DNA of 64,000 nt. Source: Bryobacteraceae bacterium (GTDB taxonomy: Bacteria > Acidobacteriota > Terriglobia > Bryobacterales > Bryobacteraceae). Below the pieces are notes generated by a model. It was not told the origin of the DNA and ran no database searches. It saw nothing but the letters and a program-made list of their open reading frames with translations. Location: contig DASYSG010000045.1 of NCBI GenBank assembly GCA_036003585.1, positions 37,094-101,093 on the forward strand, in the 5' to 3' direction. Both the position numbers and the translations under genes were made by a program. Of the stretch, positions 37,659 to 64,000 are shown piece by piece. The first letter of the stretch is position 1. Each line of letters opens with the position of its first letter.

Positions 37659-38735
37659 CTACTCTGGATCACGTGCGCCGCGTCCGGCCCTCCGAACGGC
37701 CTCAAACCTCCAGTCGATTCGTCGATGCTTGAATTTCCTCGCGGACGGCTGCCCGACAACCCACTCCACTCCTATTTGTCCGTTGACCACGGGCCACGGG
37801 CTGACCTTGATGAAAGGTATGTCGGGAAAGGCGCTGATGTCGAGCGGGTAGCGGGGCTCTGGATGAAGAATGCCAAGCACGGCGCTCTGGTCGCCCGCCA
37901 CGCTCACCAACAGAACTGCTGAGATGCTTGGTCGCTTCGCAGTTATCTCACGTGTCTTGGGATTGCCACGTAGAAAAACCGAGTGCTCCAAGTTCGTGAT
38001 TTGGCTGGTTTCACCGACTGCAATCGGGACCGAGATTTGCGCGTCCGAGATCAGAACTGATCGTGCGGCCAAGGTATTGCACAGAATGGCATCAGCTCCG
38101 ATATGACTGGAAACGATGGCAAGGACGCGCGGCATTGGGTGCTCGGAAAGCTGACGGACCTTGTCTGATGCGCGTTGCGTGATTCGTTCCGTCAGCAAAC
38201 TGAATGGGCCGCCGGAGATTTCTTCAGGGAACTCGTTTGGCCAACCGCTGTTCCGCTCGACCGCGGACGGTTCCAAAGTTGTGGCTTCGACAGCGAGTGG
38301 CCACGAACCGCTTTCACTGAACCAAATGGGTCGGTACGTACACATGAAGTCCGCCCCGCCGGCGAACACGTCCGAGATCGTAGGGCGCAACTGAAGTTGC
38401 TGGAGGATGCCGAACACAACGGCTTCCGCTAAAGCCGACTCCAGGCTTTCCTGCCGCAGGTTCTGAAAGGACTTCAGATTATTGGGCGCTTCGCCTTCGA
38501 TGTGCTTCACGAACGAGTCGACGAGTTCCTCCGTGGTTGTTGCGAAGCCGAAAAACTTGCTCCATGCGTCCGCGTCATAACCGGGCTTTTTCGATGAGCT
38601 GCCCAGCAAGTATCCGAGCGCCACCCCCGCTCCGACACCCGCGGCAGCCCACATCTCTTGCGCGCTCATCATACGAACCAGCTTAGCGTTGACGCGGCAT
38701 CCGTCACGAAATGAATGTTGGATGACTGATAGCAA
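37659..38735 (-). CDS. Hypothetical protein with an N-terminal TM helix
   Basis: Long ORF containing 'MWAAAGVGAGVALGYLLG'. No recognisable catalytic motif. The start may be at 38672. Confidence 0.5.
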   Translation of the reverse strand: MLSVIQHSFRDGCRVNAKLVRMMSAQEMWAAAGVGAGVALGYLLGSSSKKPGYDADAWSKFFGFATTTEELVDSFVKHIEGEAPNNLKSFQNLRQESLESALAEAVVFGILQQLQLRPTISDVFAGGADFMCTYRPIWFSESGSWPLAVEATTLEPSAVERNSGWPNEFPEEISGGPFSLLTERITQRASDKVRQLSEHPMPRVLAIVSSHIGADAILCNTLAARSVLISDAQISVPIAVGETSQITNLEHSVFLRGNPKTREITAKRPSISAVLLVSVAGDQSAVLGILHPEPRYPLDISAFPDIPFIKVSPWPVVNGQIGVEWVVGQPSARKFKHRRIDWRFEAVRRAGRGARDPE

Positions 38736-38802: not shown

Positions 38803-39690
38803 TCAATTATGCCCGGCGACGAGCGCAGTCCCGCTCACACTTCCCGAAAGACCACTTCCGCTGATGTCCACCTCCGGCGTATTCCCCATGCGACAATCCA
38901 AAACTAGAGACGTAGTGGGTGGACTTCCCTGCGCGGCCAAGAGGTGCTCGCTGCTAGACCAAGCGCGAGCCGCCATGTAATGCTCTTCCACAGTCCCGAC
39001 AAGATGGAGAAGACCCAGATCGGAGCGGTAATCACCGCTTGAAATGGTCATCTGGTTGGATGGGCCCGTCCCAGCCGTTGATGGTGGATTTCCAGAATAA
39101 GCGAACGTCCCCACTGTGGTGACGCTTGTGCCGTCGCTCTTATATAGCGTGTAGGTCTGCGCAGTTGTATCTCGCGAAAACCCGATATAGACCCAGACGT
39201 CATTCGGAATTGCTGCCGCGAATGGGTTCGAACCGTTATTGATGTTAGCGGATGCCGTATCGTGCCCGACAATAATCGACCACGAGCCCGATGATCCAGC
39301 AAGGCTCATGAAGTACGGCCATGCCGTACTGCTATCGAGGGTTCCACCAGGGCCACCGCAAACCAGACAACCCTGCCCGTTGCTCGGCAGCTTGATCCAC
39401 ATGCCAATACTCAAATCGCCAACTACACGCAGCGGAGAGCTGGAAAGGGCTCCCCAGTTGATTTTGTCCGCTGTGCTCGCAAACTGTCGCGCACGCCCAC
39501 CGCTCTCGATCGCGATCACAGCCCCAGACAGCCGGATATACTCCTTCGTGAGCTGGGAAGACTGTGCTTGAGACAGGGGACTAAGCGGCACGCTACACAG
39601 GCATGCTACAGAAACAGCAAGCAAGTGTCCGAACCGAAGCGCCCCCTTCTGCGAGCTATGCCTTAATCCAACGCTATCACCGGCTCCCAT
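38803..39690 (-). CDS. Secreted LamG/concanavalin-like lectin-fold protein
   Basis: RBS AAGGAGA upstream of the ATG at 39690 and a signal-like 'LLAVSVACLCSVPLSPLSQAQS'. 'LSIGMWIKLPSNGQGCLV...WVYIGFSRDTTAQTYTLYKSDG' fits the Laminin_G_3 pattern. Confidence 0.5.
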   Translation of the reverse strand: MGAGDSVGLRHSSQKGALRFGHLLAVSVACLCSVPLSPLSQAQSSQLTKEYIRLSGAVIAIESGGRARQFASTADKINWGALSSSPLRVVGDLSIGMWIKLPSNGQGCLVCGGPGGTLDSSTAWPYFMSLAGSSGSWSIIVGHDTASANINNGSNPFAAAIPNDVWVYIGFSRDTTAQTYTLYKSDGTSVTTVGTFAYSGNPPSTAGTGPSNQMTISSGDYRSDLGLLHLVGTVEEHYMAARAWSSSEHLLAAQGSPPTTSLVLDCRMGNTPEVDISGSGLSGSVSGTALVAGHN

Positions 39691-39783: not shown

Positions 39784-40005
39784 CTATCGGTGATTCGGCG
39801 AGCCCGGTCTTCTCCGTTCTTGCCGTCTACCCAATAAAGTTCCAACAACATTCAGAAGGCCATACACCAAGTATGAGAGGAGTGGAAATAGAAGGGCGAT
39901 CCACAAAGCAACGTGGAGAACGAAGTAAACGAATGCAGTGATGGGCACCCACAGCAGGAGCAGCAGGAGACCGACACGCCATTTGACGATAAGCGGATTG
40001 CTCAT
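39784..40005 (-). CDS. 73-aa multi-TM protein; candidate immunity protein for RHS-2
   Basis: Its ATG overlaps the RHS stop as ATGA (40002-40005). 'VGLLLLLLWVPITAFVYFVLHVALWIALLFPLLSYLVYGLLNVVGTLLG' is almost entirely hydrophobic. Confidence 0.65.
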   Translation of the reverse strand: MSNPLIVKWRVGLLLLLLWVPITAFVYFVLHVALWIALLFPLLSYLVYGLLNVVGTLLGRRQERRRPGSPNHR

Positions 40006-43000
40006 TTGCAGTAGCTTGGCCTTCCGGCCAGAGCACCTACTGCCGCGCCAATCGCGGCTCCCCCGGCAGCGTTGAACCCGGGGCTGGTCCGAGTGGCTGC
40101 ACTCATGATCTTGGCCGGGTCACCTTCGTATTTCGCAATGATTTGATCTTGCGTATACGAACGAAGAGGCTTCATTCCGAAGTTGCCGATCCGCTTGATA
40201 CTTTCCCTCATTGCGGAACCCGCCAACGCAGTTTCCATTTCGGTAGCGCCCCCGCGAACCAGGAGAGGTATCGCTTTAGCGGCTCCGGCATAGGCCAGTC
40301 TGCCCACACCAAAGGCAAGTGGAGCAAGAGCGCCGCTTTCATACCATCCAGAACACTGATTGACGACGCTGTTGCTTCCCATGCGGTCGCGAATCTTTGA
40401 AGTCAAGCGGAAAGTGAGGGCATCGCCGGCACCTGAGACCACATCAACGAACCAAGTGGGGAAGGTCGGGAGATTTTCGTACCAAACTCCTCCCGAAGCG
40501 TTTTCAAAGTTCTCGATCACTATACCGCTGTTGATCGCACCCTGAAGCGCACCAGGCCCACCCAGCGGTACCTGCTCATTCCACGGCCCACTGTTCACGC
40601 CGCTGCTGATGTCGCCGATAATTCCACCAGCGATCGAACTGGCACCGCCGATGCCTGCGATCGTCTGACCGATTGCAACCAACTCGCCCTGTCCAGTGAG
40701 AGCCCCGATTGCATCCAAAACTGCCCCGCCGAGAATGCACCAGAAACATTCACCGCTCGGATCCGTGTACGTCAGTGGATTGTTCCCGACATACGAATAC
40801 CCGTTCCAAGTCTGCGGATCAGCGATGGACGCTCCCGCGTTGGCTGGGTCGACGCTTTGAAACCGCCCCTGGGTACTGCTGAAATAACGCGTCTGGAACC
40901 AATCCAGACCCGTCCCCGAGTTCACGTTGGCGGTCTCGGAATCCCGATCCTGCCCAGTGAACTTCTCCAGGAGGTTATCCGGACTGGAAGGGTACCCCAT
41001 CCCCGCCGCGTCGCGCCCGTTGATTCCCGAGAGAATCTCGTCGCCGAACGGAAGGTAATCATAACGGCGCACGGTGGTCGAGCCGTTCTTATCGGTCAGC
41101 ATCCGCGTGGAGCCCAGGTGATCTGCCGTCACGTAACATGTGGGAGTACCGCAAGGGCTGCCACTCGCCGCACCGCTATACTCCGCCGCCAGGTTCCCAA
41201 AGGCGTCATAGACATAGGTCGTAGTCTGACTATTCCACGTCTTGCTCACCCGCAGGCCGTTGCCGTCGTAAGAATACGAAGCGGTACTCCCGTTGATCGT
41301 CGCCGTAACTTGGCGGTTCTCGGCGTCGTAAGTGAAACTGCGGGCTGCGATGCCGGGCTGGATTACATTCCCATTAGCGTCATAAGTCCACCCAACGACT
41401 TGGTTCGCGCTCGTGAATGCGTTGCTGGCTTGTGGCGTCTCCTGAGTAAGCGACGGAAGAACGGCCGGGGCCACCTGGGAGTGGTAAGACACCCAGCGGT
41501 TGCCGTTCCCAGCATAGCCATACGTTTCCAAAGAGACGCCGCCTTCGGTGACGCCGGTCAAGCGATTCAGGTTATCGCCATAGCTATAGACCTGCGTCAA
41601 ATTCAGTGCCGGTGAACCGTTCAGCGCCGGAAAGGCGATGCTCTGCGACTGAAGATTTCCATTATTTCCGGTCGTACAAGAGGTAGCATTGCTCGGGCAA
41701 GGGTAGAAGCCAAGTGTAAGAAGCGAAGAATTCGAGGCTGAGTTGACCTGAAGGCCGATCGGTTGCAAGCGGTCATTCCACGTGACTTGCTGGGACACAC
41801 CGTTTCCAGTGGTCATCGTCGAGATGCCGCCCGGAGCGGTGTAGCTGATAGCGGCATAGTTTGTGTTGGCATTTACGTTCTGAATCGTCGCGATACGATC
41901 GGCGGCGTCCAGCCCGTATTTCACTTGCCGCCCGGACGGGTATTTCATGTAAGTTAACTGATCGGTCAGCGAGTATGCGTAGGTGAATTGGTAGGCCGGA
42001 TTGCTCGCGGTGGTCTGTGTACTGGTTACAATCCGCCCAAAAGCATCATGCGTATAGGTCGTGGTGCTAACCGGCGAGATGCACGAGCTGGTGTCGGTGG
42101 ATGTACACACCGACGAAAGACCGCCTTTGAAACCCACATCGTATGTATAAAAAACAGACGGCGTCGTAACCGTCATGCCGCCTACAGAGTAGGTTTTCTT
42201 CTTTAGGCGGGCAAGTCCATCATACGGGCCCAAAGCGGTCACGGTTCCGATTGCATCCGTTTTCTGCACGAGATTACCATTGCCGTCATAAACATAGCTG
42301 ACGGGTCCGCTCTCCGGGTTTGTTGCCGATTTCAGCCGCGAGAGTGTGCTGTAGACAAAGCACCGGCCATGAGTACTGTTGTCAGGAAGTGTGCACGTCG
42401 AGTTAGATTGGCCAGCCACATCGACGGCCACAAGGTTGTTTAGCGGATCATGACCGTAGTTTGTCTGTGTCCCATCAGGCTCCGTTACGGCGGCGAGTCG
42501 TCCGAGTCCGTCCGGACAGTTGATATGCGTGTTATTGGCTTCATCGGTCACGTTCACCGTCGGGCCAGCGCATCCACTCGTAGCCACATCGTAAGTAGTA
42601 GTCACAGTGCCTGTGAGGGAATCGGTGCTGCCCGGAGTGGGCTGCGAGGCTCCGGCATAGTTATCTACCCTAGTCACCCGGCCTGCTGGATCGCGCGTCG
42701 TCACGGTCCAGCCCGTCGTATTGTCAGCGGCGTAATGTGGATTGGATGTCAATTCGTAGCTGCGATGCGCCGTCGCAGAGAAGCTGTACACTTTGTCGAC
42801 TAAATTGGTAGAGGTCCCGCTGCCATTTTGGATCTGAATGACCCGGCCCACAGGATCATAAAACGTTTTGGATGTTAAAGGCTGTCCAGGCAGGTCGTCG
42901 CTCGATGTCGCAACCGAAAGGTTTACGTCGTCATAGATCGTGGTGGTGGTCCGGTCCAAGGATCCTGCTTGCTCTTCCACTGTCTTTTGTCGGCCAAGGT

Positions 43001-45404
43001 CGTCGTACGTGAAGGTAGTCGTGATGGAATTGTCGGCATCCGCTACAGCGGAGGGCAACCCGCTGTTAAAATCTATTGAATAGGTCGTCGTACGGCCCTC
43101 GGTTAACATCGACGGACTGGGGCACGCGGTGCTGGTCGCCCCCACAAATCGAGCCACTGGATAGAGGTTGTTCGTGCCATAGCAGATGAGCGTTATGACT
43201 CCGTTGGGATCAGTTTGGGACGCTAGATTTCCGTTCGCAAGATACGTGAATGTGCTAGTGATGTTGTTGTTGATCGTGGAATCGTACTGCTGCACTTGTG
43301 TGAGGTTAGCGGTCGTGAGCGCATTGTCGTAGGTGTAGGTCGTGCACGCCGCCGCACTCGCGCACGTCATGCTGTTAACCATTACAGTCTGTTTTGCTCT
43401 GAGATACGTAGGGACTCCGTATTGCTGCCAATACGTCGGGTTTGGAGTGGGCTGAAAATACGCGGTGTTGGTAGTCCTTGCGGCGGTTCCCGAAATCGAC
43501 GTTACAAAAGTGCCTCCGCCTTGCAGTACGCTGCCGCTCGAAAGCCAATCATACTCATATAGAGTAGTCGGATTGCCATTCTGGTCCTGCGTGATTTGGG
43601 CTCCGTTTGAAACACTTAAACCAGGGGGAGTCTGAGTACGGTACTGCACATACGGGTTGAAGATCGCGGATGAAGGCAAACTACCTGGGGTAGGATTGCT
43701 GGTCCACCCCATCAGCGTTACACTCCCATCGCGATTCAAGATCTTGTAGGGCAGAGCCGGACAGAAATCACGCGATTTAAAGGAGGGCGAACACAAGTTC
43801 GCTGTAAAGATTTCGCTAACGCTTCCGTCAGGATAGGTGACTTGGCCCGCCGTACCGGTCTGCGGATAGCTGAATGCATTCGAAGGACCGAGAATTGAGT
43901 AGCTGGTCGTTTCCGTAGTCGTTGAATACTGAAGCACCTTGTTCGTGATGGGGTTAACTGCCGTTGCCGGCGGCCGCGGATAGGTCGCGAGTGGACAGGA
44001 GATCCCCACATCGTAGCAGTAGGTATACGTGGCGTTGTATTGCTGGGTCAAGTTGCCTGTTGTGCCGGTTGACATGGCCAGCGAATGGACTTCACCCCAA
44101 CTGCTGTAGCCAAACGTAAAGCTGCTGAAGGCACCACCGCTTGTGGCGGCGGGTAATTCGATGGAATTGACCACCATGGGCAACGACGTCAGATTAGCCG
44201 CCAAATTGATGGTGGATGCGGTATATGTCGAACCGTCGGGATTGACCAGATTGTAGTATGAAATGCTCGAGTCAGGAGTAAGGCTTGCCCAGTCCACGTT
44301 CGTCGTCAGGTTTCCATGAATTCCTGGCCACGTGATCGTATCGGTCCACGTCCCCCCCGTGTTGGAGCCGTACTGAATCGTGATGCTTCGACCCGGTGAG
44401 GGTACTCCGCCGCTGTCGGTGGGCTTTGTTCCCACGGTTACAGTGCAGGGGCCGGAGGCGCAACTTCGGTCGAATATCAATTGGTTGCCGTTGCGATCTA
44501 TCACCCAGAGCGCGTCGCTGTCATTGGCGTGTCCGCCTGGACTCACGATCGTGGGGAACCAGCCTTGGCTGCTTACTTGACTCCCGTCGGCAAGATATGC
44601 GATCCAGCTTCCGAAGCCGCCATAGACGGACACTTCCACGCGGATGTAGGTGCTGTCACTGGACGCGAATACGAGCGTGCCCAAGAACTGAGTATTTGTC
44701 AGCCCACAACTCTGGCTTGTGTTTCCACCGACATCGTACTGCCAATAAGCATCGTTGGGATCACGGGCGATCGATGTGGATGGAGGGCTAGTGACGACGC
44801 CGTCCTGTATAGTCGCAACCAAAGTCAGCACATGATTGCTCCCATCGGGTGTTTGCAAATAATTTTTGAACCAGGCGTGCTGGCCGACGGTTCCAATTCC
44901 GTCACACTGGTCCGAGAGGTTGAAATCAGGATAGCGCGGCTGGGACCAGAGCGTATAGTTGAAACTATAATTCCAGCCTCCCCCGTGCAGGCTACTGGCG
45001 TATCGGTATTGTAATGGATTGCCCGGAATCGCGCTTTGTATGTCATAGATGGTGCTGTTATAGGTCAGATTCACTCCTGTCGCAAGATCACCAGGTCCTG
45101 GCGGCAGGTGCGCCAAGGGGATCGACAGGCCGACGTTGCCAGTGCTGGCATTCACTGACTCGATTTGGCTGAGAGCATACTGGCCGGTCGCCGACGAGCC
45201 TCGGGTCGTCACGCTATCGGGAGGATCAGTGAGCGCGACCTGAGCCAAGGTTGAGCATACAAGGCAATTGATGATGAAGAACAACCGCCAACCCACCACT
45301 CGATTCTTGAGCGCGGATGTCTCTCCTGCCAGCCTTGCGTGGGGACCACGGTTTGGCGGATTTCTGGCAAACTTAGCACTCCCGATGGTTCCTGTTTGGC
45401 CCAT
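40002..45404 (-). CDS. RHS/YD-repeat polymorphic toxin (1800 aa) with a glycine-zipper-rich ~248-aa C-terminal domain
   Basis: RBS GGGAGGAG upstream of the ATG at 45404. YD-type repeats include 'YTYDDLGRQKTV', 'YVYDGNGNLVQKTD', 'YSYDGNGLRVSK' and 'YVYDAFGNLAAE'. The core end is 'RRYDYLPFGDE...QTRYFSSTQGRFQSVDP...WNGYSYVGNNPLTYTDPSGE'. The CT contains 'ILGGAVLDAIGALTGQGELVAIGQTIAGIGGASSIAGGIIG'. Confidence 0.9.
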   Translation of the reverse strand: MGQTGTIGSAKFARNPPNRGPHARLAGETSALKNRVVGWRLFFIINCLVCSTLAQVALTDPPDSVTTRGSSATGQYALSQIESVNASTGNVGLSIPLAHLPPGPGDLATGVNLTYNSTIYDIQSAIPGNPLQYRYASSLHGGGWNYSFNYTLWSQPRYPDFNLSDQCDGIGTVGQHAWFKNYLQTPDGSNHVLTLVATIQDGVVTSPPSTSIARDPNDAYWQYDVGGNTSQSCGLTNTQFLGTLVFASSDSTYIRVEVSVYGGFGSWIAYLADGSQVSSQGWFPTIVSPGGHANDSDALWVIDRNGNQLIFDRSCASGPCTVTVGTKPTDSGGVPSPGRSITIQYGSNTGGTWTDTITWPGIHGNLTTNVDWASLTPDSSISYYNLVNPDGSTYTASTINLAANLTSLPMVVNSIELPAATSGGAFSSFTFGYSSWGEVHSLAMSTGTTGNLTQQYNATYTYCYDVGISCPLATYPRPPATAVNPITNKVLQYSTTTETTSYSILGPSNAFSYPQTGTAGQVTYPDGSVSEIFTANLCSPSFKSRDFCPALPYKILNRDGSVTLMGWTSNPTPGSLPSSAIFNPYVQYRTQTPPGLSVSNGAQITQDQNGNPTTLYEYDWLSSGSVLQGGGTFVTSISGTAARTTNTAYFQPTPNPTYWQQYGVPTYLRAKQTVMVNSMTCASAAACTTYTYDNALTTANLTQVQQYDSTINNNITSTFTYLANGNLASQTDPNGVITLICYGTNNLYPVARFVGATSTACPSPSMLTEGRTTTYSIDFNSGLPSAVADADNSITTTFTYDDLGRQKTVEEQAGSLDRTTTTIYDDVNLSVATSSDDLPGQPLTSKTFYDPVGRVIQIQNGSGTSTNLVDKVYSFSATAHRSYELTSNPHYAADNTTGWTVTTRDPAGRVTRVDNYAGASQPTPGSTDSLTGTVTTTYDVATSGCAGPTVNVTDEANNTHINCPDGLGRLAAVTEPDGTQTNYGHDPLNNLVAVDVAGQSNSTCTLPDNSTHGRCFVYSTLSRLKSATNPESGPVSYVYDGNGNLVQKTDAIGTVTALGPYDGLARLKKKTYSVGGMTVTTPSVFYTYDVGFKGGLSSVCTSTDTSSCISPVSTTTYTHDAFGRIVTSTQTTASNPAYQFTYAYSLTDQLTYMKYPSGRQVKYGLDAADRIATIQNVNANTNYAAISYTAPGGISTMTTGNGVSQQVTWNDRLQPIGLQVNSASNSSLLTLGFYPCPSNATSCTTGNNGNLQSQSIAFPALNGSPALNLTQVYSYGDNLNRLTGVTEGGVSLETYGYAGNGNRWVSYHSQVAPAVLPSLTQETPQASNAFTSANQVVGWTYDANGNVIQPGIAARSFTYDAENRQVTATINGSTASYSYDGNGLRVSKTWNSQTTTYVYDAFGNLAAEYSGAASGSPCGTPTCYVTADHLGSTRMLTDKNGSTTVRRYDYLPFGDEILSGINGRDAAGMGYPSSPDNLLEKFTGQDRDSETANVNSGTGLDWFQTRYFSSTQGRFQSVDPANAGASIADPQTWNGYSYVGNNPLTYTDPSGECFWCILGGAVLDAIGALTGQGELVAIGQTIAGIGGASSIAGGIIGDISSGVNSGPWNEQVPLGGPGALQGAINSGIVIENFENASGGVWYENLPTFPTWFVDVVSGAGDALTFRLTSKIRDRMGSNSVVNQCSGWYESGALAPLAFGVGRLAYAGAAKAIPLLVRGGATEMETALAGSAMRESIKRIGNFGMKPLRSYTQDQIIAKYEGDPAKIMSAATRTSPGFNAAGGAAIGAAVGALAGRPSYCK

Positions 45405-48091: not shown

Positions 48092-48616
48092 TCAACGCCG
48101 CCGAAAGCGCCCGCTTGCAGGCGCACGACCCTCGATCGCCTTGCCAAGGAGGCAGAGCCTTCGGCAACAACGCAGAACATCCCAAGGTTCAGTGTCAGGG
48201 ATTTGATCGGATATTTCTTCCGCTGACTGGTCATTGTTGGACAGTACTTCTAGCACTCGCCGCGGAAGCTCGTCCTCGTCCGCGTCAGCTTCGTCTATCC
48301 ACGACTCACCGTATCGCGCTCCAAACAGAAGAATATCATCACGCCATATGATGAAGTGGCTCTTGCAATCGGTGTCGCGCCACACCGACGGGTATACGCT
48401 CGTTCCCTTGGACGATTCATACATGCGCCATGCGGGACCGGCACGGCGGTCGAGATTCACAGGCACCTCAGCGCCGCACCCGCAAGGGCAACAGAGGATC
48501 AACCAGCGCGGTCCCTGTCTATCCACGATGACTGCATCTCCCGCCCGCTTCAAATGTGCGCTCGCTTTCTCGCGCGAACCCACCCTTGCTTTGATAGAAA
48601 AACGTTTGTTCAACAT
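48092..48616 (-). CDS. Cys-rich 'CPCGC' protein, DUF6527-like, with an acidic C-terminal extension
   Basis: 'RWLILCCPCGCGAEVPVNL...SVYPSVWRDTDCKSHFIIWRDDIL'. The ATG at 48616 overlaps the upstream gene by 7 nt. Confidence 0.6.
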   Translation of the reverse strand: MLNKRFSIKARVGSREKASAHLKRAGDAVIVDRQGPRWLILCCPCGCGAEVPVNLDRRAGPAWRMYESSKGTSVYPSVWRDTDCKSHFIIWRDDILLFGARYGESWIDEADADEDELPRRVLEVLSNNDQSAEEISDQIPDTEPWDVLRCCRRLCLLGKAIEGRAPASGRFRRR

Positions 48617-50343
48617 CGTTCTCCAGCCTTGGACCGGCGCTTCCTTCTACCTGAGGCTGTTGTTGCCTTCGGGGCTGTTTCACGAAAAAGTTTTTGACCA
48701 AAGAGAAATGCGATCGCGCGTGATACGTTCGGAGCTTCGGCTTCTAGGTTCTCATTCGTGTTGCAACCCTTGCGAATAAGACAAAGCGCGAGAGTCAGAG
48801 CGTATTGACCGGGCTCATGTTCTGCCGACCAGCTCAGGGTCCGGATCTGGTTGACAGCGTCGTAGTACCATTCTGTGGAATGTCCTCGCGGGCAGTGTGT
48901 CGTCCCGCCTTTAAGAGCAGATTGCTCATAGAGCGGTTCGATCGACTTAACGAGCTCGACCGGTGTGAATCTGCTGTTTTTGAGATCCTCGATGAAGCCC
49001 TCGACTAAAAGCCCGCCTTCCAAAGAGGCCGGGTCATAAGTTAGCGGAAAGTGCTCTTCTAATTTCTCGAAATCTATGAGTATCGCATCGCCGTGGCGAA
49101 CAAGCACGTTCGAGGCATGCATGTCACCATGCGCTGGCGCAATCAGCGGCGAGGTATTTCCGTGGAGTTCAAACAGTTTCTTAAGCGGCGCAACGTCGCT
49201 ATCTCCTCCAAGAGTGTGGACAATGTTCGCTCGTTTGGGAGGCAACGCGATAAGAGCATTCGAACCCTCCATGTGCCATTTCATCTCTAAATAACCGCTA
49301 AGCGATAATGTCGTGTCGAGACTTTTCTGTTTGCGCCAACCGCCAAGCGTCTTGTCGAACAAATTCGAGATGGCATGGCCGCAGCGCTCCCCCCGCGCGC
49401 ACGTTATCAGCGACTCTGCGCCGCCTACAAAATCGCCCACGAGGATCCCCTGCGTTGATCCCAGATTGCAGCGGTCCCGACGCAGGCGCGGTCCGAGGTG
49501 AAAAGGCACATATTCAAATATGTAGCCGCAATATTTATCGTACTCGTCCACGACCTTCTTTCGTGGTCCAAGTTTTACGAAATATAGATGCGGGTAAGGA
49601 CCCGCTACCCCCCGTGGTACGGCGTCAACGACTGGCGCGACCCGACTGTAAAAGCCAGAATCTAGCCACGCATACGCTTTAAAGACGGGCGCACCAGACA
49701 TCCCGCCGTCGAGCAATGTTAGTTTGAGTTCGGAGCAATTCCAGAAGGCCCGCTTGAGCAACATAACGCGTTCCGAGTGCCCGTCGGACCCAAATATGTC
49801 ACGAAGAAAGTCTTCGTCGACTTTCAATTCGGATTTCTGGAACGGACCGGCGGGCCGATCGCAGACCAAAGCCGCAACATCCGGCCAGGACGACGCCGAT
49901 TCGAAGATGTAGACGCACGGCAACAGAAAGCCATTTTCTCTCTCGCGAAGAAGTTCCGGCGTCGTTCGCCACTCAGTCGGTCGAAGATTTGCAACAGGAA
50001 TCGCGTTTTCTAGTAGCGTGTTGACGACCAGTCTTCGGGGCGTATCGGTGCGATTCTCGTCTGTTGCGAGACGAATATAGACCCGGACGTCGTGGTTGAG
50101 CAGATTGGCGGCAATCGTCTGCAGTTCTCGAGGCAAAGTATTCAACTTGTTCGGGTCCTGCGTCCAAATCACCGCATCCAATCCACTGGCATATTCAGAG
50201 TCGCAAAGCTTCTCCGGTGTGCACCACCCGCATTGAAAGTTTCGCTCTGTAAATCGGTCGAGGTACTTTGCGGGCGGCAAGCTTGGGATGAAAGCAATTT
50301 TAGCTCGTGGCGTACTTTGGGGCGAAAATTCGTGAATCGCCAT
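48610..50343 (-). CDS. 577-aa protein with an unknown alpha/beta N-domain and a C-terminal APH/choline-kinase-like protein-kinase fold
   Basis: 'LLDGGMSGAPVFKAY' is the Gly-rich loop, 'LYFVKLG' holds the Lys, 'HGDMHASNVLVRHGDAILIDFEKL' covers the catalytic loop and metal-binding Asp. The ATG at 50343 lies 1 nt after the E1 stop. Confidence 0.6.
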   Translation of the reverse strand: MAIHEFSPQSTPRAKIAFIPSLPPAKYLDRFTERNFQCGWCTPEKLCDSEYASGLDAVIWTQDPNKLNTLPRELQTIAANLLNHDVRVYIRLATDENRTDTPRRLVVNTLLENAIPVANLRPTEWRTTPELLRERENGFLLPCVYIFESASSWPDVAALVCDRPAGPFQKSELKVDEDFLRDIFGSDGHSERVMLLKRAFWNCSELKLTLLDGGMSGAPVFKAYAWLDSGFYSRVAPVVDAVPRGVAGPYPHLYFVKLGPRKKVVDEYDKYCGYIFEYVPFHLGPRLRRDRCNLGSTQGILVGDFVGGAESLITCARGERCGHAISNLFDKTLGGWRKQKSLDTTLSLSGYLEMKWHMEGSNALIALPPKRANIVHTLGGDSDVAPLKKLFELHGNTSPLIAPAHGDMHASNVLVRHGDAILIDFEKLEEHFPLTYDPASLEGGLLVEGFIEDLKNSRFTPVELVKSIEPLYEQSALKGGTTHCPRGHSTEWYYDAVNQIRTLSWSAEHEPGQYALTLALCLIRKGCNTNENLEAEAPNVSRAIAFLFGQKLFRETAPKATTASGRRKRRSKAGERC

Positions 50344-50344
50344 C

Positions 50345-51679
50345 TCAATCGTCCCGTGTGAAAAGGGGTTGCGCTTCTCCCCGTCCGAGAACTCCCTGCG
50401 GAGAGCAAATATAGCAATTTGGATTTCTAGTGAACGATACGGTCCTAAGCGACGGAGTTCGTGCGTTGTAGAGGATGTTTCGGCCGTCGCTTGGAATGCC
50501 TACCGTCATGGCCAGAAACATCGTCATCGCGATCGAGCTCACGGTGCCATTGATCGAGATGACGGCCGGTGCAGGTTCGTAGGCGCCTAGGATATACGAA
50601 TCCCGTTGGCGTTCTTCGACGTTCATCATATCTCGCCGAACCTCTTCGGAATCGAGCAACTCACAGCAGGTGAAGCAGGGCAGCCCAGGCGCGAGCGCCT
50701 GCACGCGGCCATGTATGCCCGCGATGTGACCATCGCTTGCCGAGATGACTGAACCCACGTCGATGCACGGAATGAGGTATTGATACGCGATCTGTTGGAT
50801 AACCGCACGGCTTCCGTGTGAGTCAGTACAGGAGAAGATGAAATCTGCGCCCCGCAGTTCGCGGGCGAATCGCGTCCTCGTTACATCACCCACGATCCGG
50901 TGCGAGACCGAGTCGGATACGATGCGCGCAATCATGTCCGCGATCACATCTGTCTTAAAGCGGCCGACATCACTAGCGTAGGCCCCGACGACTCGGTTCA
51001 GATTAGTCAATTCGATGCGATCGGGATCGATGAGAATGAACTTGCGTACACCCAAATAGGCGAGCTGTTCAGCAGCTATGGAGCCAGTGCCACCGGCGCC
51101 GACTATAGCCACCGTCAGCGATTCAAGATGCTTCTGTCCCGCGGCACCCAATGCGCGGATCTGGCGGTCGAATTTCAGGGAAGCAGGCGCTTGAGCATTC
51201 TCCGGGTCGAACAGAATCTGCAGCTGCGGACCCACGGAAATGATGCGTAACGGCATCTTTGTGCCCAGACATCGAGCCCGCCACCCGCCTTCGCTGACCA
51301 CTACGGCAACATGCTTTGTACCTGGCGCGCGTACGGATAGGAAGTGTTCCAGATGAACCTCGCCTTGGTCATCTGTCCGGGAGAACCCCGGTGGCACTGA
51401 CCTAGGATGCGAGTGTACGAAAACGACCGAAAGACTTTCGCGCGCCGCCGTCTTGCCGATACGAGCAATATAGTCGGGTTTCAGTTCCGCACTTACTAAG
51501 CTGCGATTCGAATAACTTTCATTGTCCGGATACTCGATACGGGTTACGATGAGGCGCTCTAAGCCATCAGGTAAAACAACGCGCGACGCAAGCAGGATAG
51601 CGCATCGTTCAGTCTCGCGGCCTACGAGTTCGCCGACGATTCGGCTAACGTCACTGTCTTGAATCCTAAGCTCGATCAT
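50345..51679 (-). CDS. JAB::E1 fusion (Prok-JAB-like N-domain plus ThiF-type adenylyltransferase)
   Basis: JAB motifs are 'TERCAILLA' and 'VVFVHSHPRSVPPGFSRTD'. E1 motifs are 'VAIVGAGGTGSIAAEQLAYLGVRKFILIDPDRIELTNLNRV' and 'LPCFTCCE'. The ATG at 51679 overlaps the E2 stop as ATGA (51676-51679). Confidence 0.8.
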   Translation of the reverse strand: MIELRIQDSDVSRIVGELVGRETERCAILLASRVVLPDGLERLIVTRIEYPDNESYSNRSLVSAELKPDYIARIGKTAARESLSVVFVHSHPRSVPPGFSRTDDQGEVHLEHFLSVRAPGTKHVAVVVSEGGWRARCLGTKMPLRIISVGPQLQILFDPENAQAPASLKFDRQIRALGAAGQKHLESLTVAIVGAGGTGSIAAEQLAYLGVRKFILIDPDRIELTNLNRVVGAYASDVGRFKTDVIADMIARIVSDSVSHRIVGDVTRTRFARELRGADFIFSCTDSHGSRAVIQQIAYQYLIPCIDVGSVISASDGHIAGIHGRVQALAPGLPCFTCCELLDSEEVRRDMMNVEERQRDSYILGAYEPAPAVISINGTVSSIAMTMFLAMTVGIPSDGRNILYNARTPSLRTVSFTRNPNCYICSPQGVLGRGEAQPLFTRDD

Positions 51680-52074
51680 CGTGGTGGATTCATTCGCTGA
51701 AGGATCGCCCATAAAAAGCTCTCAAGCCGACTGCGGTTCGGATCCCACACCTGAAGATGCCAAGAAAACCATGTCAGTGGACGTCCCGCAACGAGATCGT
51801 ACGGTAATGGAGTTCCTTCGTTCGCGTTCTGCGGAATAGCACCATTGGAGAGGCGCACTGGTGGAGCGACCCAGAAGCAGTCGGGCTTGGCGGCAGGATA
51901 CCCAGGAGGGGCGATGAAAAAGATGTCAACCTTCCGAGGGCTCCAGCCCTCCGGTAGCTCGACGCCCTTAATCGTGATGAGATACGAGCCGTCCGAGCGG
52001 CGCTGAATGTCGGCGCCCTGATTCTTGAACTCCTTTAGATAACCCTGGAGTTCTATAAATTGTTCGCCAATCAT
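51676..52074 (-). CDS. Prokaryotic E2/UBC-like protein (Prok-E2_E-like)
   Basis: 'VELPEGWSPRKVDIFFIAPPGYPAAKPDCFWVAPPVRL' has a UBC-like PxxYP flap and a candidate catalytic Cys. It overlaps both neighbours as ATGA. Confidence 0.65.
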   Translation of the reverse strand: MIGEQFIELQGYLKEFKNQGADIQRRSDGSYLITIKGVELPEGWSPRKVDIFFIAPPGYPAAKPDCFWVAPPVRLSNGAIPQNANEGTPLPYDLVAGRPLTWFSWHLQVWDPNRSRLESFLWAILQRMNPPR

Positions 52075-52316
52075 CCTAAACCAAACGTGGCTGGTGGGAC
52101 ACCAAAGAAATGTTTCACGCGCTCGGTGATGCTCACCGCTTCGCCGTCGCCAATGCCCTTGTCTGGTCTATCACCCTCTTCTTCAAAGAAGAGCTGATAG
52201 TTTGGAGCGACGTTGGCAATCGCCTTTATCTCGGACCCGGTGAGCGCGGTTTTGGCGGTTTCGTAACGCTTGGCATCCACAAAGAACGGATGAAGTGATT
52301 TGGCTACTTCGGACAT
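52071..52316 (-). CDS. 81-aa ubiquitin-like protein (Multiubiquitin-domain-like) ending in Gly
   Basis: RBS AAGGAG 7 nt upstream of the ATG at 52316. 'FFVDAKRYETAKTALTGSEIKAIANV...GEAVSITERVKHFFGVPPATFGLG' then stop. Confidence 0.65.
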   Translation of the reverse strand: MSEVAKSLHPFFVDAKRYETAKTALTGSEIKAIANVAPNYQLFFEEEGDRPDKGIGDGEAVSITERVKHFFGVPPATFGLG

Positions 52317-52338: not shown

Positions 52339-53202
52339 TCATTCGTCGTGTTTCACGTCTTCAAACTGACTACGATTGGCCCACACGATTGGCTGAGCCT
52401 CCTGAGCTTCGTCAATGCGTAGGTGTCGTACAAAATACGAAACTAAGGCGCGTCGGATCGTTTTAGACAACCTTCCATCCAGCATACCCAAATCATTGAT
52501 AACAGACTCTTTTTGGCTGATCGTTAGATTTGGATTGGGTTCAATGTCAACCACGAAAAAAGTCTGCCATTCAACGTCGTCTTGGAGATCTATGCTACCC
52601 GCGCGGCGTCCGTGAGTTTCTTGGATTCGCGTCAGTACGAAGTCTCGAAATCGAGAAGCGCTGTAACACCATGCGCGCGCATGCCAGCGTGTGCCATCGA
52701 AGGCTAGCGAATGAGGGGCAATCCACTGACGCGTCGGATCGGGACTGCGCATCGATTGGTACGTTATGTCGAGGTCTGTGCCATCACGTATCGCCCATAG
52801 GATTGGCAACAGTACTTCCTTACGCACGCGTCGCACCGGTAAAGTTACGACGTCGCATGGCGGCCGAGCCCCCATAAAGCTGAGCGCCGGCGAAATTGTT
52901 CCTGTAGCCAATCCTGAAAGTTCGTTGAGGTAGGTCTGGGTGTCGGGCACGATGAATAACGGCGTGAATTGTTTTGTCGAGCGATAGACCTTGTCGCGAC
53001 GGTCATACTCCATGTTGTTCCTGGCTAGGGCCATGTATTTTGCGAAGTCCGAGGATGCATGTTGAATTGAGACGTTGAAATATTCCGCCACTTCGCCGCG
53101 ATTGATTTTCCCATCCCACAGCAAGCGAAATTCGATGAATTCCAAGCGCCGATTTTGGCCCCATGGCCGGGGGCGCGGGTTTAGATCCCTATCAGTAAGC
53201 AT
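52339..53202 (-). CDS. HTH plus WYL-domain transcriptional regulator (CapW/BrxR-like)
   Basis: The N-terminal wHTH is 'RLEFIEFRLLWDGKINRGEVAEYFNVSIQHASSDFAKY'. The WYL core is 'LDITYQSMRSPDPTRQWIAPHSLAFDGTRWHARAWCYSASRFRDFVLTRI'. Confidence 0.7.
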   Translation of the reverse strand: MLTDRDLNPRPRPWGQNRRLEFIEFRLLWDGKINRGEVAEYFNVSIQHASSDFAKYMALARNNMEYDRRDKVYRSTKQFTPLFIVPDTQTYLNELSGLATGTISPALSFMGARPPCDVVTLPVRRVRKEVLLPILWAIRDGTDLDITYQSMRSPDPTRQWIAPHSLAFDGTRWHARAWCYSASRFRDFVLTRIQETHGRRAGSIDLQDDVEWQTFFVVDIEPNPNLTISQKESVINDLGMLDGRLSKTIRRALVSYFVRHLRIDEAQEAQPIVWANRSQFEDVKHDE

Positions 53203-53220
53203 GACAAAAATGCCGATACA

Positions 53221-54117
53221 TCATCTATTACGATTAATCGTATAATACGACGTATCGGCCCGGAAGTCAATAGGGTGCGTTTCGAGTCCCAGTGCACCAG
53301 CTTGTGTCGATTGCAGCCGCAAACGGTAAGAACGCCATTTGCTTCGGGTTTTACATAATTCACATGCCTTCCTCTGCATGATCATTGAGCCACCGTCGAA
53401 CTTCGGATCAGACAGGCTGAGCCGCCGGTAATTCCACGCGCGCGGCCGCTCCGTGGTTAGCGTGTCCACAGAATAGACTGCGGGCGATCCGACCGCCTGC
53501 AATACGTCGGTGATGGCAGGTGTTCCCGGACACGGATAGCGGTCGTCGTTCACGATGTCTGGAAACAGGCACGCGATGCACGGGCCGTCCTTGTCCTGAA
53601 CGAACACGTAGCGGTGATCAGCGTCGCGGCTGACGGCGGTGAAGATGCCCGGAATCTCCTTCGCGCGGAAGTACCAGCTCGCCGTGACACGAGCCGGATT
53701 GTTGTCCACGCCGCAGATCACAACGTCACAGGCGAGATCGATGCCGCGGGCGATCGCGTCCTCAAACTGCAATGGGTAGCCGCGGATATTTGTCGCAACG
53801 ATACATTCCGGCTGAAGATTCCGGGCCAGGGCGATCGCCTTGTTCTCGCCAATATCCTTCACATAAAACCTCTGGCGGTTCAGGTTGGTCGGTTCGACTA
53901 CGTCATTATCGAGTACGGTGATCTGCCCGACGCCTTTGCGCACGAGCGTCGGTGCGATCTGGCACATGATCCCGCCCGCCCCGATGCACAGGACGTGGGC
54001 GCGAGTAAAAGTCTCCTGATCAAACCCGAGGATCTATCGCTGGCGGTCCAGGGCTCCGGTGATCGCCTGGCCGCGCAATTCAATCGAGGTTCTTGAGCCG
54101 GTAAACGCCGGGTGCAT
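53221..54117 (-). pseudogene. Decayed paralog of the ThiF-type E1 gene at 18162..18941, interrupted by an in-frame TAG
   Basis: The start 'MHPAFTGSRTSIELRGQAITGALDRQR' runs into TAG (54034-54036) and continues in the same frame as 'ILGFDQETFTRAHVLCIGAGGIMCQIAPTLV...'. About three quarters of residues match copy 1 by eye. DNA homology ends near 53350 and the normal stop is lost. Confidence 0.7.
53229..53250. promoter_or_regulatory. Array of inverted TACGA half-sites (candidate operator) 27-48 nt upstream of the WYL gene start
   Basis: TACGATTAATCGTA (53229-53242) is a perfect 14-bp palindrome. TCGTA-TAA-TACGA (53238-53250) shares the middle half-site. AT-rich hexamers (TATTAT / TAATAG on the minus strand) overlap it. 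Confidence 0.5.
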
Positions 54118-61898: not shown

Positions 61899-64000
61899 TC
61901 AATAGTGGAACCGGTATCTAACCTGAACGTAGATCTGCCTTGGCTCCGCGTAGTGCGTCCCCCCGAACGTCTCACTGTTATCGAGTAAGAAGCGCCGGTT
62001 TGCCACATTCAGCGCCGTAACCCCGATGGTCAGATTTTGCGCGATCGGCTTGCTGAGCGAAAGGTCCAACGTCGTGTGCTGCTCCAGATGCGCGGGCACC
62101 TCGCTCGATCCGTCCGTGAATCCAGAGCCGTAGTACAAGTTACCGCCGGCAGTGGTTTGCCACGGCAGACGAAAGTTGAAGCCGGCGTGCAGCGTGTGGG
62201 TCTGATCATGATCCAGCAGGAAGTAGCCGCTCTGAGGAGGCGAGAAGTCGGTCAGACCGCCATTGACTGCGCCGGAACCTTCGGCGTGCGCAAACGCATA
62301 GCTGAGATACACCTCGCCGCGGTGGGCGATCTGCGGAGAGCGAATGCTCAATTCCCACCCATACAGCCGCGCATTGTCGATCGTCAGAGGGAAGAAAATG
62401 TTCGAGTTGCCGATCGCATTGTGATCGAAGTAATTCCGCGCACGCTGATGATAATCGTTCACATCGAATGACCAGCCGCGCAGGGGAATCGTAAGCCCGA
62501 ATTGATGTTCTTGATCACGCTCGCCGCGCAGAGGGATGAAGTCCAGGCCCTGCGACAGCGCGAAACCCAAGAGAGGTCCGCTTACGGTGGACAGCGGCGG
62601 GGCCTGGTAGTACTCACCCCAGAACCCTCGCAGGACCCAGTTCAAGTGCGGGATGCGAATGGTTCCCCCAAGCCGGGGACTCGCCGCATTCTCCGCAAGC
62701 GCCCCACTGAAGTGCGTGAGCCGCGCTCCCGCGGTCAGCGTGAGCCAATCCAGAGGTTTGTACTGCTCCTCCGCGTAGAACGTTTCCAGATGCCCGGATG
62801 TGTTCTGCTCCTGGGCTAGCCCGAGTCCGGAGCCATCATGGGCGATCAAATCGATCGATTCGGCGTCCTTCTGCCCGAAACCATAAACACCGATACTAGC
62901 GTTATGATGCGTCGTCACCGCATTGAAGACGATTTGCGCACCGGCATATTGCGAGCCTCGATGCTGCGTGGGGCTGATCGGCGTGTCACTAGGGCTGCCG
63001 TCGTAATTAGCGCGATTGTAGTGATAAAACGGCGACACTGTAAGCAGCATTCCCGGCCGGAAGGTATGCGCCCAGGAGAGACTTCCCAGCGCATCGCGTT
63101 CCCGTTCGAGATCGCGAATTCCCGCCTGCTGAGCGTCCGGATCGTTCGGAATTTGATAATCGTCGCGCCGCAGTGACGTTACGAAACGAAGCTGATCGTT
63201 CGCGTCCCGATTGTAGATCAGCGTCCCCATGCCGCCGAATCCCGACACCCGATCGTGCAATACATCGGGACCGGGTGTTTCCAGGCCGTAATCGCTGCGG
63301 TTGCCGTTGAAGCTGCCGAAATAAGCGAATTTCTCACTGTGGCTGCCGAAATTCACCTGATCGTTGGTCTGATGAAATGTGCCATAAGTCGCAGACAGTT
63401 CGGCTTCATTACTACGTTCGAAGCCGGTCCTCGGCACCACATTGAATACGCCGTAAGTACGATCGCCGTATGCAGCGGAATAGCCGCCGCGCTGCGCCTC
63501 CAGATAATCGATATCCTTGGGGTCGATCTGGGGTCCGACATTACTCGCGATATTGGTATTGGGGATCGGAACGCCGTCAATCGCCCAGGTCACCTGGTGC
63601 CCGCCGCGCACATGCAGCTGGTCATGGGTCACCCAGGCCCCGGGAACGTAGTCGGTGATCGCCTTCAGGCTGTTGCTCAAATCCGCGCCCGGCGTGGTTT
63701 CGATTTCGCTTCGGCTGACGATCGTGGCGGGTGTCACCTGCTCTGGGTTCACGGTTAAGGCAGGCTCGGCTACCGTGACCTGGTCGCTTCGGGTCCCGAT
63801 CGCGAGCTGAAAATGCAGCAAAGGAGCGCTGCCGGAGGCCACGACAATCTGCTGTTGAGACGGCGCGAATCCTTCCTTGGCGACTGTGACGACGTAGGAT
63901 CCTACCGGAAGCGCGGTCGCTTCGAAAGCCCCATCGGCATCGGTGGTCAGATCCCGGGAGTATTCTGAGTTGCTCGACTTCACGATTACCTGCGCTCCCT
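61899..64000 (-). CDS. TonB-dependent receptor with a carboxypeptidase-regulatory-like N-domain (5' end outside the window)
   Basis: The frame stays open to nt 64000. 'DADGAFEATALPVGSYVVTVAKEGF' marks the CarbopepD_reg-like domain. A beta-barrel follows and ends in the aromatic 'YVQVRYRFHY'. Confidence 0.8.
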   Translation of the reverse strand, partial: GAQVIVKSSNSEYSRDLTTDADGAFEATALPVGSYVVTVAKEGFAPSQQQIVVASGSAPLLHFQLAIGTRSDQVTVAEPALTVNPEQVTPATIVSRSEIETTPGADLSNSLKAITDYVPGAWVTHDQLHVRGGHQVTWAIDGVPIPNTNIASNVGPQIDPKDIDYLEAQRGGYSAAYGDRTYGVFNVVPRTGFERSNEAELSATYGTFHQTNDQVNFGSHSEKFAYFGSFNGNRSDYGLETPGPDVLHDRVSGFGGMGTLIYNRDANDQLRFVTSLRRDDYQIPNDPDAQQAGIRDLERERDALGSLSWAHTFRPGMLLTVSPFYHYNRANYDGSPSDTPISPTQHRGSQYAGAQIVFNAVTTHHNASIGVYGFGQKDAESIDLIAHDGSGLGLAQEQNTSGHLETFYAEEQYKPLDWLTLTAGARLTHFSGALAENAASPRLGGTIRIPHLNWVLRGFWGEYYQAPPLSTVSGPLLGFALSQGLDFIPLRGERDQEHQFGLTIPLRGWSFDVNDYHQRARNYFDHNAIGNSNIFFPLTIDNARLYGWELSIRSPQIAHRGEVYLSYAFAHAEGSGAVNGGLTDFSPPQSGYFLLDHDQTHTLHAGFNFRLPWQTTAGGNLYYGSGFTDGSSEVPAHLEQHTTLDLSLSKPIAQNLTIGVTALNVANRRFLLDNSETFGGTHYAEPRQIYVQVRYRFHY

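Follow-up and report, generated by a model that had tools for sequence, protein, structure and literature searches.

We examined a 64,000-nucleotide stretch of DNA from a Bryobacteraceae bacterium (GenBank assembly GCA_036003585.1, contig DASYSG010000045.1, positions 37,094 to 101,093; hereafter the window, to whose own numbering all coordinates refer), in which a gene for a kinase-like protein sits inside a Bub operon, i.e., an operon for the conjugation of a ubiquitin-like protein (Ubl). In our reading, to which we assign a probability of roughly 0.5, this protein is a catalytically competent, ATP-dependent phosphotransferase and forms an additional, integral subunit of the Type I Bub systems of one clade. 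The arrangement suggests that phosphorylation is linked to ubiquitin-like tagging. The gene is located at 48610..50343 on the minus strand, and the list of open reading frames (ORFs) with their translations gives an ATG start, a stop codon at 48610-48612, and a product of 577 amino acids. An earlier note on this DNA had the coordinates and the length right but missed that the gene lies on the minus strand. The plus-strand reading of 48610-50343 is ruled out, as that frame is full of stops.

The kinase gene within its Bub cassette

A search of 5.8 billion proteins yielded 185 homologues of the 577-amino-acid protein, all of which were positive for the Pfam family PF19974. The homologues are approximately 510-600 amino acids long, most of them by far 540-600, and the best matches reached E = 0 with a query coverage of 96-100%. 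Because the residues of the kinase motifs are, moreover, invariant, the gene is real far beyond chance.

The surrounding operon belongs to a type that was first noted as 6e (Iyer, Burroughs and Aravind, 2006; PMC1779556). The Corbett laboratory has since renamed 6E/DUF6527 as Bub and characterised it (Ye, Gong, Chambers, Corbett; bioRxiv 10.1101/2024.11.21.623953 and 10.1101/2024.11.21.623966). According to these preprints, the Ubl is BubA, the E2 (BubB) works with Ser and His, the JAB-E1 fusion (BubCD) relies on a Tyr, and the protease BubE combines a Ser-His pair with a C4 zinc site. The Ubl is transferred from E1 to E2 via oxyester intermediates, and catalytic cysteines are absent. The authors state that the targets and the biological role of Bub are unknown and that they found no phage protection.

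In the window, the cassette runs on the minus strand and starts with a BrxR/CapW-like WYL transcriptional regulator (52339..53202; Pfam WYL 4.9e-11, PADLOC WYL 1.6e-15), whose homologues at other loci have the architecture WHD_BrxR+WYL+BrxR_CTD. It is followed by BubA, a single beta-grasp Ubl precursor of 81 amino acids (52071..52316; Pfam Multi_ubiq 2.3e-9), by BubB, a cysteine-less E2 (Prok-E2_E) with the pair Ser104-x-His106 (51676..52074; Pfam 1.7e-11), and by BubCD, a JAB/JAMM peptidase fused to a ThiF-type E1 (50345..51679; Pfam ThiF 1.8e-41, Prok-JAB 1.5e-5). The kinase comes next, and the cassette closes with BubE (DUF6527), a Ser/His deconjugating protease of 174 amino acids (48092..48616; Pfam DUF6527 4.4e-17). 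The Pfam matches to Multi_ubiq, Prok-E2_E, Prok-JAB+ThiF, DUF6527, and WYL bear out the label "Ubl operon" that had been given to this region in the earlier note, which did not recognise the known Bub/6E/DUF6527 identity and the kinase as a marker of one clade.

The catalytic residues of the Bub proteins were compared across 22 closely related cassettes. The BubA tail VPPATFG(79) is invariant and is followed by one to nine variable residues (LG in the window), so that trimming of the BubA C-terminus by the JAB or the BubE peptidase would be needed. In three plasmid cassettes (L028, L032, L033), BubA stops at the Gly of ...PKANFG. The BubB motif TWFSWH (S104-W-H106) as well as D65 and D93 are invariant, which fits the Ser+His+Asp description of Type I Bub. 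BubCD retains the JAMM residues E35, H100, H102, S111, and D114 throughout, together with Y373 of the E1 part, a candidate crossover-loop Tyr that we equate with Citrobacter Y370 by position alone. The invariant BubE residues C43, C45, C47, C84, S77, and H87 correspond to a C4 zinc site and a Ser-His dyad, and their spacing is that of the published C57/C59/C61/C99 and S92/H102. Judged by these residues, the cassette is a Type I Bub (6E/DUF6527) operon with all catalytic residues intact. It shares with published Type I Bub the multiubiquitin-type Ubl, the Ser/His E2, the JAB-E1 with its Tyr, the DUF6527/BubE with the C4 zinc site, an upstream CapW/BrxR-type WYL regulator, and, at related loci, plasmid or defence/toxin-antitoxin surroundings, but differs in the extra gene for a kinase of about 500-580 amino acids between bubCD and bubE.

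The genes are closely packed. ATGA overlaps connect the Ubl gene with the E2 gene and the E2 gene with the E1 gene; the longest ORF of BubCD spans 50345-51712, and its likely start is Met12 at 51679, in an ATGA overlap with the E2 stop. The kinase gene begins after a gap of 1 nt behind the stop of the JAB-E1 gene and overlaps the start of the BubE gene by 7 nt, in accordance with the tight coupling to both neighbours that had been claimed before. By their junctions, the cassette genes are translationally coupled.

This gene order is strictly conserved. A scan of one genome per species revealed 23 loci, 21 of which were complete. All 21 complete genome or metagenome loci showed the order WYL-Ubl-E2-JAB/E1-kinase-BubE, and the WYL regulator was present in each of the complete chromosomal loci (21/21). 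These loci belong to Acidobacteriota, Alpha-, Beta-, and Gammaproteobacteria, and Binataceae, with kinase identities down to 31%; Ferribacterium limneticum and Bradyrhizobium sp. S3.3.6, for instance, carry all six genes in this order. A tblastn search of plasmids recovered the core Ubl-E2-E1-"phosphotransferase"-DUF6527 in Bradyrhizobium, Mesorhizobium, Rhizobium, and Deinococcus. The plasmid cassettes have other regulators and adjoin CBASS, RES-Xre, HEPN, and helicase genes, often in defence or toxin-antitoxin surroundings. No conserved metabolic genes were found around the cassette in the loci examined. The strict synteny at more than 25 loci strongly supports the proposal, also made in the earlier note, that the gene is a functional member of the operon, and we regard the kinase as a functional component of the cassette with high confidence.

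The opposite view, i.e., that the gene is an unrelated passenger such as an antibiotic-resistance phosphotransferase inserted by chance, is hardly credible. Homologues are simply called "phosphotransferase" in RefSeq, and the kinase is absent from one decayed locus, both of which would agree with a passenger. However, at least five phyla share its position and orientation, at identities as low as 23%, translational coupling ties the gene to both neighbours, its occurrence is restricted to one E1 clade, and its N-terminal domain occurs in no other architecture. A phage origin was rejected, as a tblastn search of 50,697 phage records gave no match; BFVD returned generic kinases only.

The presence of the kinase follows the phylogeny of the E1. 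Plasmid-encoded E1 proteins that are at least 41% identical to the window E1 always have the kinase gene downstream, with a single exception in Roseomonas (L030, discussed below). For the inspected E1 proteins with identities of at most 33%, DUF6527 is directly next or BubE is missing, and no kinase is present (5/5). In an identity-clustering bootstrap, the lowest E1 identity inside the clade (0.36) was above the highest identity to kinase-less operons (0.33), and the kinase-linked set clustered apart in 200/200 column resamplings. By E1 sequence, the kinase-bearing operons form a separate, monophyletic clade with members in Acidobacteriota, Proteobacteria, Binataceae, and Deinococcus. In the published Table S1, the gene IDs of E1 and DUF6527 are contiguous in all but two of approximately 140 Type I Bub rows.

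The partner proteins differ between the two groups as well. The Ubl tail reads [VA]P[PK]A[TN]FG in kinase-linked cassettes versus ...TEG in kinase-less Bub. BubE of kinase-linked cassettes (L027, L028, L032, L033, and the window) is longer, with about 160-200 amino acids, and carries a C-terminal extension of the pattern E-I/L-P-W-D-V...C-R-x-L...E-G...F-R-R, which includes a PWD motif and looks helical. It lacks the N-terminal hydrophobic extension that is present in kinase-less BubE (L031, L036, L037) and in the BubE of the Bub preprint. The C-terminal extension is absent from the Deinococcus BubE (140 amino acids).

Two further observations concern BubE. At four loci, a second, diverged DUF6527/BubE paralogue lies directly downstream of the first on either strand (L001, 10270-10875; L014, 9279-10313; L015, 8553-9092; L023, 9210-9779). 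A metagenomic protein of 713 amino acids (P0204) appears to be a fusion of the N-terminal domain, the kinase, and DUF6527. We rejected it as a "Rosetta stone" fusion, since the last kinase helix is replaced by low-complexity sequence; such a junction is typical of a frameshift, and P0204 is probably a frameshift or assembly artefact.

Kinase fold and N-terminal domain

The AlphaFold2 (AF2) model of the 577-amino-acid protein, built on 50 homologues, has a pLDDT of 84.9 and a pTM of 0.82. Structure prediction and Foldseek searches of the N-terminal and the kinase part, as proposed in the earlier note, gave a bilobal kinase fold for the latter and a generic flavodoxin/CheY-like fold for the former. 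The phosphotransferase domain comprises residues 201-557 (48673..49743, minus strand) and is assigned by Pfam TCAD9, Foldseek against the PDB, and conservation to the APH/ChoK-type branch of the protein kinase-like superfamily. The Foldseek matches with a probability of 1.0 include 5-methylthioribose (MTR) kinase (E 8.7e-7), APH(3')-Ia, APH(9), maltokinase, glucosamine kinase, and choline kinase. Pfam, the AF2 model, and Foldseek thus agree on a kinase fold in the C-terminal two thirds of the protein, where it had been placed from sequence motifs.

All motif strings quoted in the earlier note were found in the translation (residues 15-24, 55-64, 86-97, 213-224, 254-259, 405-415, and 421-428), and those named as the kinase signature turned out to be the invariant ones in the homologue alignments. 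On the minus strand, the Gly-rich loop GGMSGA (49672-49707) lies in GGMSGAPVFKAY, residues 213-224. Lys257 (49573-49575) is part of YFVKLG (residues 254-259), and Glu267 is encoded at 49543-49545. The catalytic loop HGDMHASN (49108-49131) belongs to HGDMHASNVLV (residues 405-415), the metal-binding DFE (49066-49074) belongs to ILIDFEKL (residues 421-428), and a ChoK-like DPASLE follows at 49018-49035. The order of the motifs, i.e., Gly-rich loop, beta3 Lys and alphaC Glu, HxDxxxxN catalytic loop, and DFx with the metal-binding Asp, is canonical. The pair IDFE...YDPASLE corresponds to the ChoK/APH type, and only a short loop separates DFE from the next helix.

Residues G214, S216, G217, K257, E267, H405, G406, D407, N412, D424, F425, and E426 are invariant in an alignment of 50 sequences. 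In 69 cluster representatives with only 28-38% identity to the window protein, K257, E267, H405, D407, N412, and D424 are 100% conserved, and G214 and S216 together with the catalytic set are conserved to 98-100%. Even the Deinococcus homologue, with 23% identity, retains the catalytic residues. The invariance of the catalytic residues and their canonical order indicate an enzyme under selection for phosphotransfer, and sequence conservation makes an active phosphotransferase highly probable. The polar residues Y472, W492, R501, Q513, Y514, K525, and R542 of the C-lobe also stay conserved in the 69 relatives, which argues for a fixed rather than a hypervariable substrate.

A protein with this fold may catalyse another reaction, such as the AMPylation or glutamylation known from SelO and SidJ, or serve as an inactive pseudokinase scaffold. 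SidJ regulates a ubiquitin ligase family. Kinase-fold proteins are generally known to perform such reactions, which are mentioned in the KINtaro paper. Against this, the Gly loop, the Lys-Glu pair, the HGD Asp, the Asn, and the DFE Asp are complete, in canonical order, and 100% conserved, and pseudokinases normally lose some of the catalytic residues. We therefore consider both variants very improbable.

At the level of sequence families, TCAD9 (PF19974, kinase clan) is the best match of the kinase. With 41.2 bits, the window protein narrowly passes the gathering cutoff of 40, and its alignment covers 48 of 429 profile positions (296-343), corresponding to the catalytic loop only; TCAD9 was matched by 50/50 aligned homologues, with a best value of 5e-21. 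A comparison with the APH profile, which had also been suggested, gave a divided result. Of the 50 homologues, 46 matched APH (PF01636) at E <= 0.01, and some divergent relatives reached 25-32 bits, but the window protein itself missed the gathering threshold (15.5 bits versus 23.2, E 0.015). Searches of the kinase against PADLOC, NCBIfam, and PHROGs returned no informative match. Sequence and profile searches of the PDB gave marginal matches to the catalytic loop (corramycin phosphotransferase, Bud32, MTR kinase, and maltokinase), all with E > 0.1.

The ternary vWA-MoxR-VMAP association of TCAD9 does not apply to the kinase, as no vWA, MoxR, or VMAP genes were present in the window or in any related locus. 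In addition, only the Bub-linked proteins have the N-terminal domain. Protein L025, which is more typical of TCAD9, is encoded next to a TIR-domain gene. No description of TCAD9 was found in the main text or the supplement of Kaur et al. (2020). With APH, choline kinase, MTR kinase, and maltokinase, the protein shares the bilobal fold, the Brenner motif HGDxxxxN, the IDFE followed by a D-x-A-x-x-E helix, and the short post-DFE loop. It differs from them in its low identity (11-15%), in the added flavodoxin-like domain, and in its location in a Ubl operon instead of a metabolic or resistance context.

The N-terminal domain encompasses residues ~10-165 (49849..50316, minus strand) and consists of five beta-alpha units, as derived from AF2, Foldseek, and profile searches. 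Its residues reach a pLDDT of about 90 whether modelled by AF2 within the full-length protein or in isolation; the isolated model has an overall pLDDT of 82. The description of the first ~190 residues as an alpha/beta domain of no assignable family held up. Foldseek searches of the PDB with the domain alone revealed weak matches to receivers (BrpR, TadZ, Spo0F, PhoP) and to B12-binding domains, with a best E value of 2.6e-3 and TM scores of ~0.57-0.60. Because these matches are weak and generic, we describe the fold as flavodoxin/CheY-like. Assignments as CheY receiver, TIR, or B12-binding domain were rejected for the same reason, and the acidic pocket of receivers is missing. Judged by position, from the alignment and the strands of the AF2 model rather than from a structural superposition, beta1 is not followed by a conserved acidic pair, residue 62 after beta3 is a Gln, and beta5 is not followed by a conserved Lys. 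A profile search of 1.84 billion representative proteins gave 122 matches, each at the N-terminus of a protein of ~510-600 amino acids or a fragment, and none in another architecture. The domain is thus restricted to the kinase architecture and, according to the models and profiles, defines a new family of flavodoxin-like N-terminal domains.

Linker helices (residues 177-200; 49744..49815, minus strand; AF2 secondary structure) end in LLxRAF and lead into the kinase N-lobe. Residues L195, R198, A199, and F200 of this motif are 97-100% conserved in the 69 divergent relatives, and the motif is retained in the Deinococcus homologue. At the other end of the domain, residues 1-8 (MAIREFSP; 50320-50343, minus strand) are nearly invariant in homologues down to ~48% identity, and Met1 and Ile3 are kept in 86-89% of relatives at 30% identity. 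AF2 predicts this peptide to be disordered (pLDDT ~40). Judging from its conservation, it could be a docking or modification motif. The C-terminal tail (residues 558-577; 48613..48672, minus strand) is basic, variable, and predicted to be disordered (pLDDT < 50). It shows no alignment consensus and no conserved terminal Gly.

The kinase evolves quickly. It is the cassette protein most diverged from its window counterpart in 21/21 loci, and its identity was below that of the E1 in 325/325 cassette pairs. At an E1 identity of ~52%, the kinase domain is 42% and the N-terminal domain 26% identical, making the latter the fastest-evolving segment. Between Deinococcus and the window, the E1 is 42% and the kinase domain 23-24% identical, and the N-terminal domain can no longer be aligned. 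Among plasmid-encoded proteins, the domain is recognisable in Bradyrhizobium and marginal in Mesorhizobium.

Substrate and role of the kinase

A protein substrate, from the pathway itself or from among its targets, is favoured over a small molecule because the C-lobe is conserved while the N-terminal domain diverges, and because the Ubl and BubE show co-adapted, clade-specific changes. We rate the chance of a protein substrate as even and no higher, as the fold neighbours favour small molecules. More specifically, the kinase might act on its own pathway, by phosphorylating the Ubl or the nucleophilic Ser and Tyr residues of E2, E1, or BubE, or it might mark the conjugation target, a proposal that we regard as tentative and rather unlikely in this specific form. 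The nucleophiles of the Bub enzymes are candidates because Ser and Tyr, unlike the usual cysteines, accept phosphate. The kinase could, instead or additionally, be a conjugation target itself.

Several points weigh against an integral kinase that acts on a protein. The nearest structural relatives, i.e., MTR kinase, APH, maltokinase, and choline kinase, are small-molecule kinases, and the short post-DFE loop is likewise of their kind. Hence, the fold taken by itself does not favour a protein substrate. The Ubl has no Ser, Thr, or Tyr that every member of the kinase-linked clade retains; Thr77, considered as a conserved phospho-site, was ruled out because it is an Asn in the Mesorhizobium and Rhizobium cassettes. 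The fast evolution of the kinase could reflect relaxed constraint instead of sensing. The kinase-less operons inspected directly number only five, and the link between kinase and Bub proteins is one of gene order and sequence. Finally, the Roseomonas mucosa locus L030 (plasmid NZ_CP025190.1, 189503-191200), an IS21-flanked remnant with an N-terminally truncated E1 of the clade type, has a BubE with the C-terminal extension directly after the E1 and contains neither kinase nor Ubl nor E2. From its sequence, it may represent either a secondary deletion or a kinase-less relative.

The most obvious alternative is a small-molecule kinase that modifies a metabolite, a nucleotide, or a signalling molecule as an effector or signal step, with the Ubl machinery regulating it or acting in parallel. 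The top Foldseek matches in the PDB, all of them small-molecule kinases, and the ChoK/APH layout with its short loop point in this direction, and the conserved basic and aromatic C-lobe residues could line a fixed ligand pocket. We nevertheless hold this reading to be rather improbable, and clearly less likely than our main one. The same fold includes protein kinases and so leaves the substrate undecided, the cassette has no conserved metabolic genes around it, and a small-molecule substrate would leave unexplained the confinement to one E1 clade and the co-variation with the Ubl tail and the BubE extension.

These clade-specific features are also compatible with a kinase that serves as the dedicated acceptor or scaffold for BubA. 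Conjugation and its removal by BubE would then switch the activity of the kinase, whichever type of substrate it has, by analogy with the E1-E2 priming of Type II CBASS. The fixed position of the kinase gene beside that of the deconjugase BubE, with overlapping reading frames, fits such a role. The lack of known targets reported by the Bub authors leaves room for it, and MAIREFSP, conserved yet predicted to be disordered, could provide the docking or modification site. However, the variable C-terminus without a Gly means that the kinase is no E1 substrate in the CBASS manner, and P0204, a seeming fusion of kinase and BubE, has the marks of a frameshift artefact. On balance, we consider this role doubtful, slightly more so than a small-molecule kinase.

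For a protein-directed kinase, the following sequence of events can be envisaged. Relief of the WYL repressor would lead to co-expression of the cassette. The JAB or BubE peptidase would trim pro-Ubl and expose Gly79, and the E1 would hand the Ubl to the E2 via oxyester intermediates, as published for Bub. The kinase would spend ATP to phosphorylate a protein hydroxyl on the Ubl, the E2, the E1, BubE, or the conjugation target, thereby coupling phosphorylation to Ubl attachment. The rapidly diverging N-terminal domain may act as a regulatory or partner-recognition module that senses a trigger, for instance infection by a phage or some other stress. Deconjugation would fall to BubE.

A different kinase has already been connected with Bub operons. 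CapK-CapS is a DNA-damage-activated kinase/repressor pair encoded upstream of many of them, and CapK, an HTH-STAS-GHKL protein of the anti-sigma-factor kinase type, is a transcriptional controller encoded with CapS (Chambers et al., EMBO J 2026, PMC13373217). Both kinases are genetically associated with Bub operons. Identity with CapK was rejected, as the window protein has no GHKL, STAS, or HTH domain in Pfam, adopts a protein-kinase-like fold, and is encoded inside the operon, namely between E1 and BubE; the cassette, moreover, already has its WYL regulator. The word "kinase" is absent from both Bub preprints and their supplements; a later paper (Ye et al., 2026) was outside the scope of this comparison.

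Cross-talk between phosphorylation and ubiquitin is known from eukaryotes, where PINK1 phosphorylates ubiquitin and phosphodegrons are in use, and Legionella SidJ is a kinase-fold regulator of the SidE ligases. The Bub-linked kinase may be alike in logic, as a kinase-fold enzyme coupled to a Ub/Ubl machine. Its homology to PINK1 and SidJ goes no further than the superfamily fold, and there is no phospho-acceptor in the Ubl that is conserved clade-wide.

Both the operon type and the kinase superfamily were already known. The monophyletic Bub branch with an embedded kinase and the family of N-terminal domains are new in the searchable literature, the paper by Ye et al. (2026) aside. Bub is a recently described and biochemically unusual conjugation pathway, for which the kinase offers a concrete experimental handle: what Bub acts on might be learned from the substrate of the kinase, or from the kinase itself if it is a conjugation target. 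The genomic context also provides a functional assignment for approximately 120 protein clusters (50% identity) that are labelled "hypothetical protein", "phosphotransferase", or "TCAD9". Should phosphorylation control or direct the attachment of the Ubl, the system would represent a bacterial counterpart of a central regulatory theme of eukaryotes. If a component of the pathway or its target is indeed phosphorylated, this would be the first ubiquitin-like conjugation system of bacteria under phospho-regulation, and its logic would resemble that of PINK1 and phosphodegrons.

Other features of the window

A consensus scan revealed a sigma-70-like promoter candidate, TTGACT-17-TATTAT (53242..53270, minus strand; 10/12 matches), about 40 nt upstream of the WYL start. 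As such sites are no commoner in the region than expected by chance, it is suggestive by its position alone.

Directly upstream of the WYL gene lies a decayed second JAB-E1 gene (53221-~54500, minus strand). Its ThiF ORF (53221-53967) lacks the N-terminus; the upstream in-frame reading is ...ALDRQR*ILGFDQETFTRAHVLCIGAGG, with the stop just before the Rossmann loop, and a JAMM motif, HFHSHPGRGPDATHPSGTD, occurs further upstream in a different frame. The gene is not conserved at other loci and is probably a remnant of another E1/JAB-type system.

Approximately 3 kb downstream of the cassette, the inspected translation of 40002-45404 (minus strand) corresponds to an RHS/YD-repeat-like protein of 1800 amino acids with a C-terminal extension. 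Smaller ORFs follow at 38803-39690 and 37659-38735 (minus strand), and judging from its sequence the region could be a polymorphic toxin locus. On the other side of the cassette, the segment 57559-60930 encodes paired small, secreted-looking proteins in repeated paralogous copies on both strands. One partner has ~130-148 amino acids and contains ...AHHSF(A/E)AEYD..., and the other has ~225-257 amino acids and ends in ...HLVGK. The copies adjoin an ORF whose translation resembles a TonB-dependent receptor (61899-63983).

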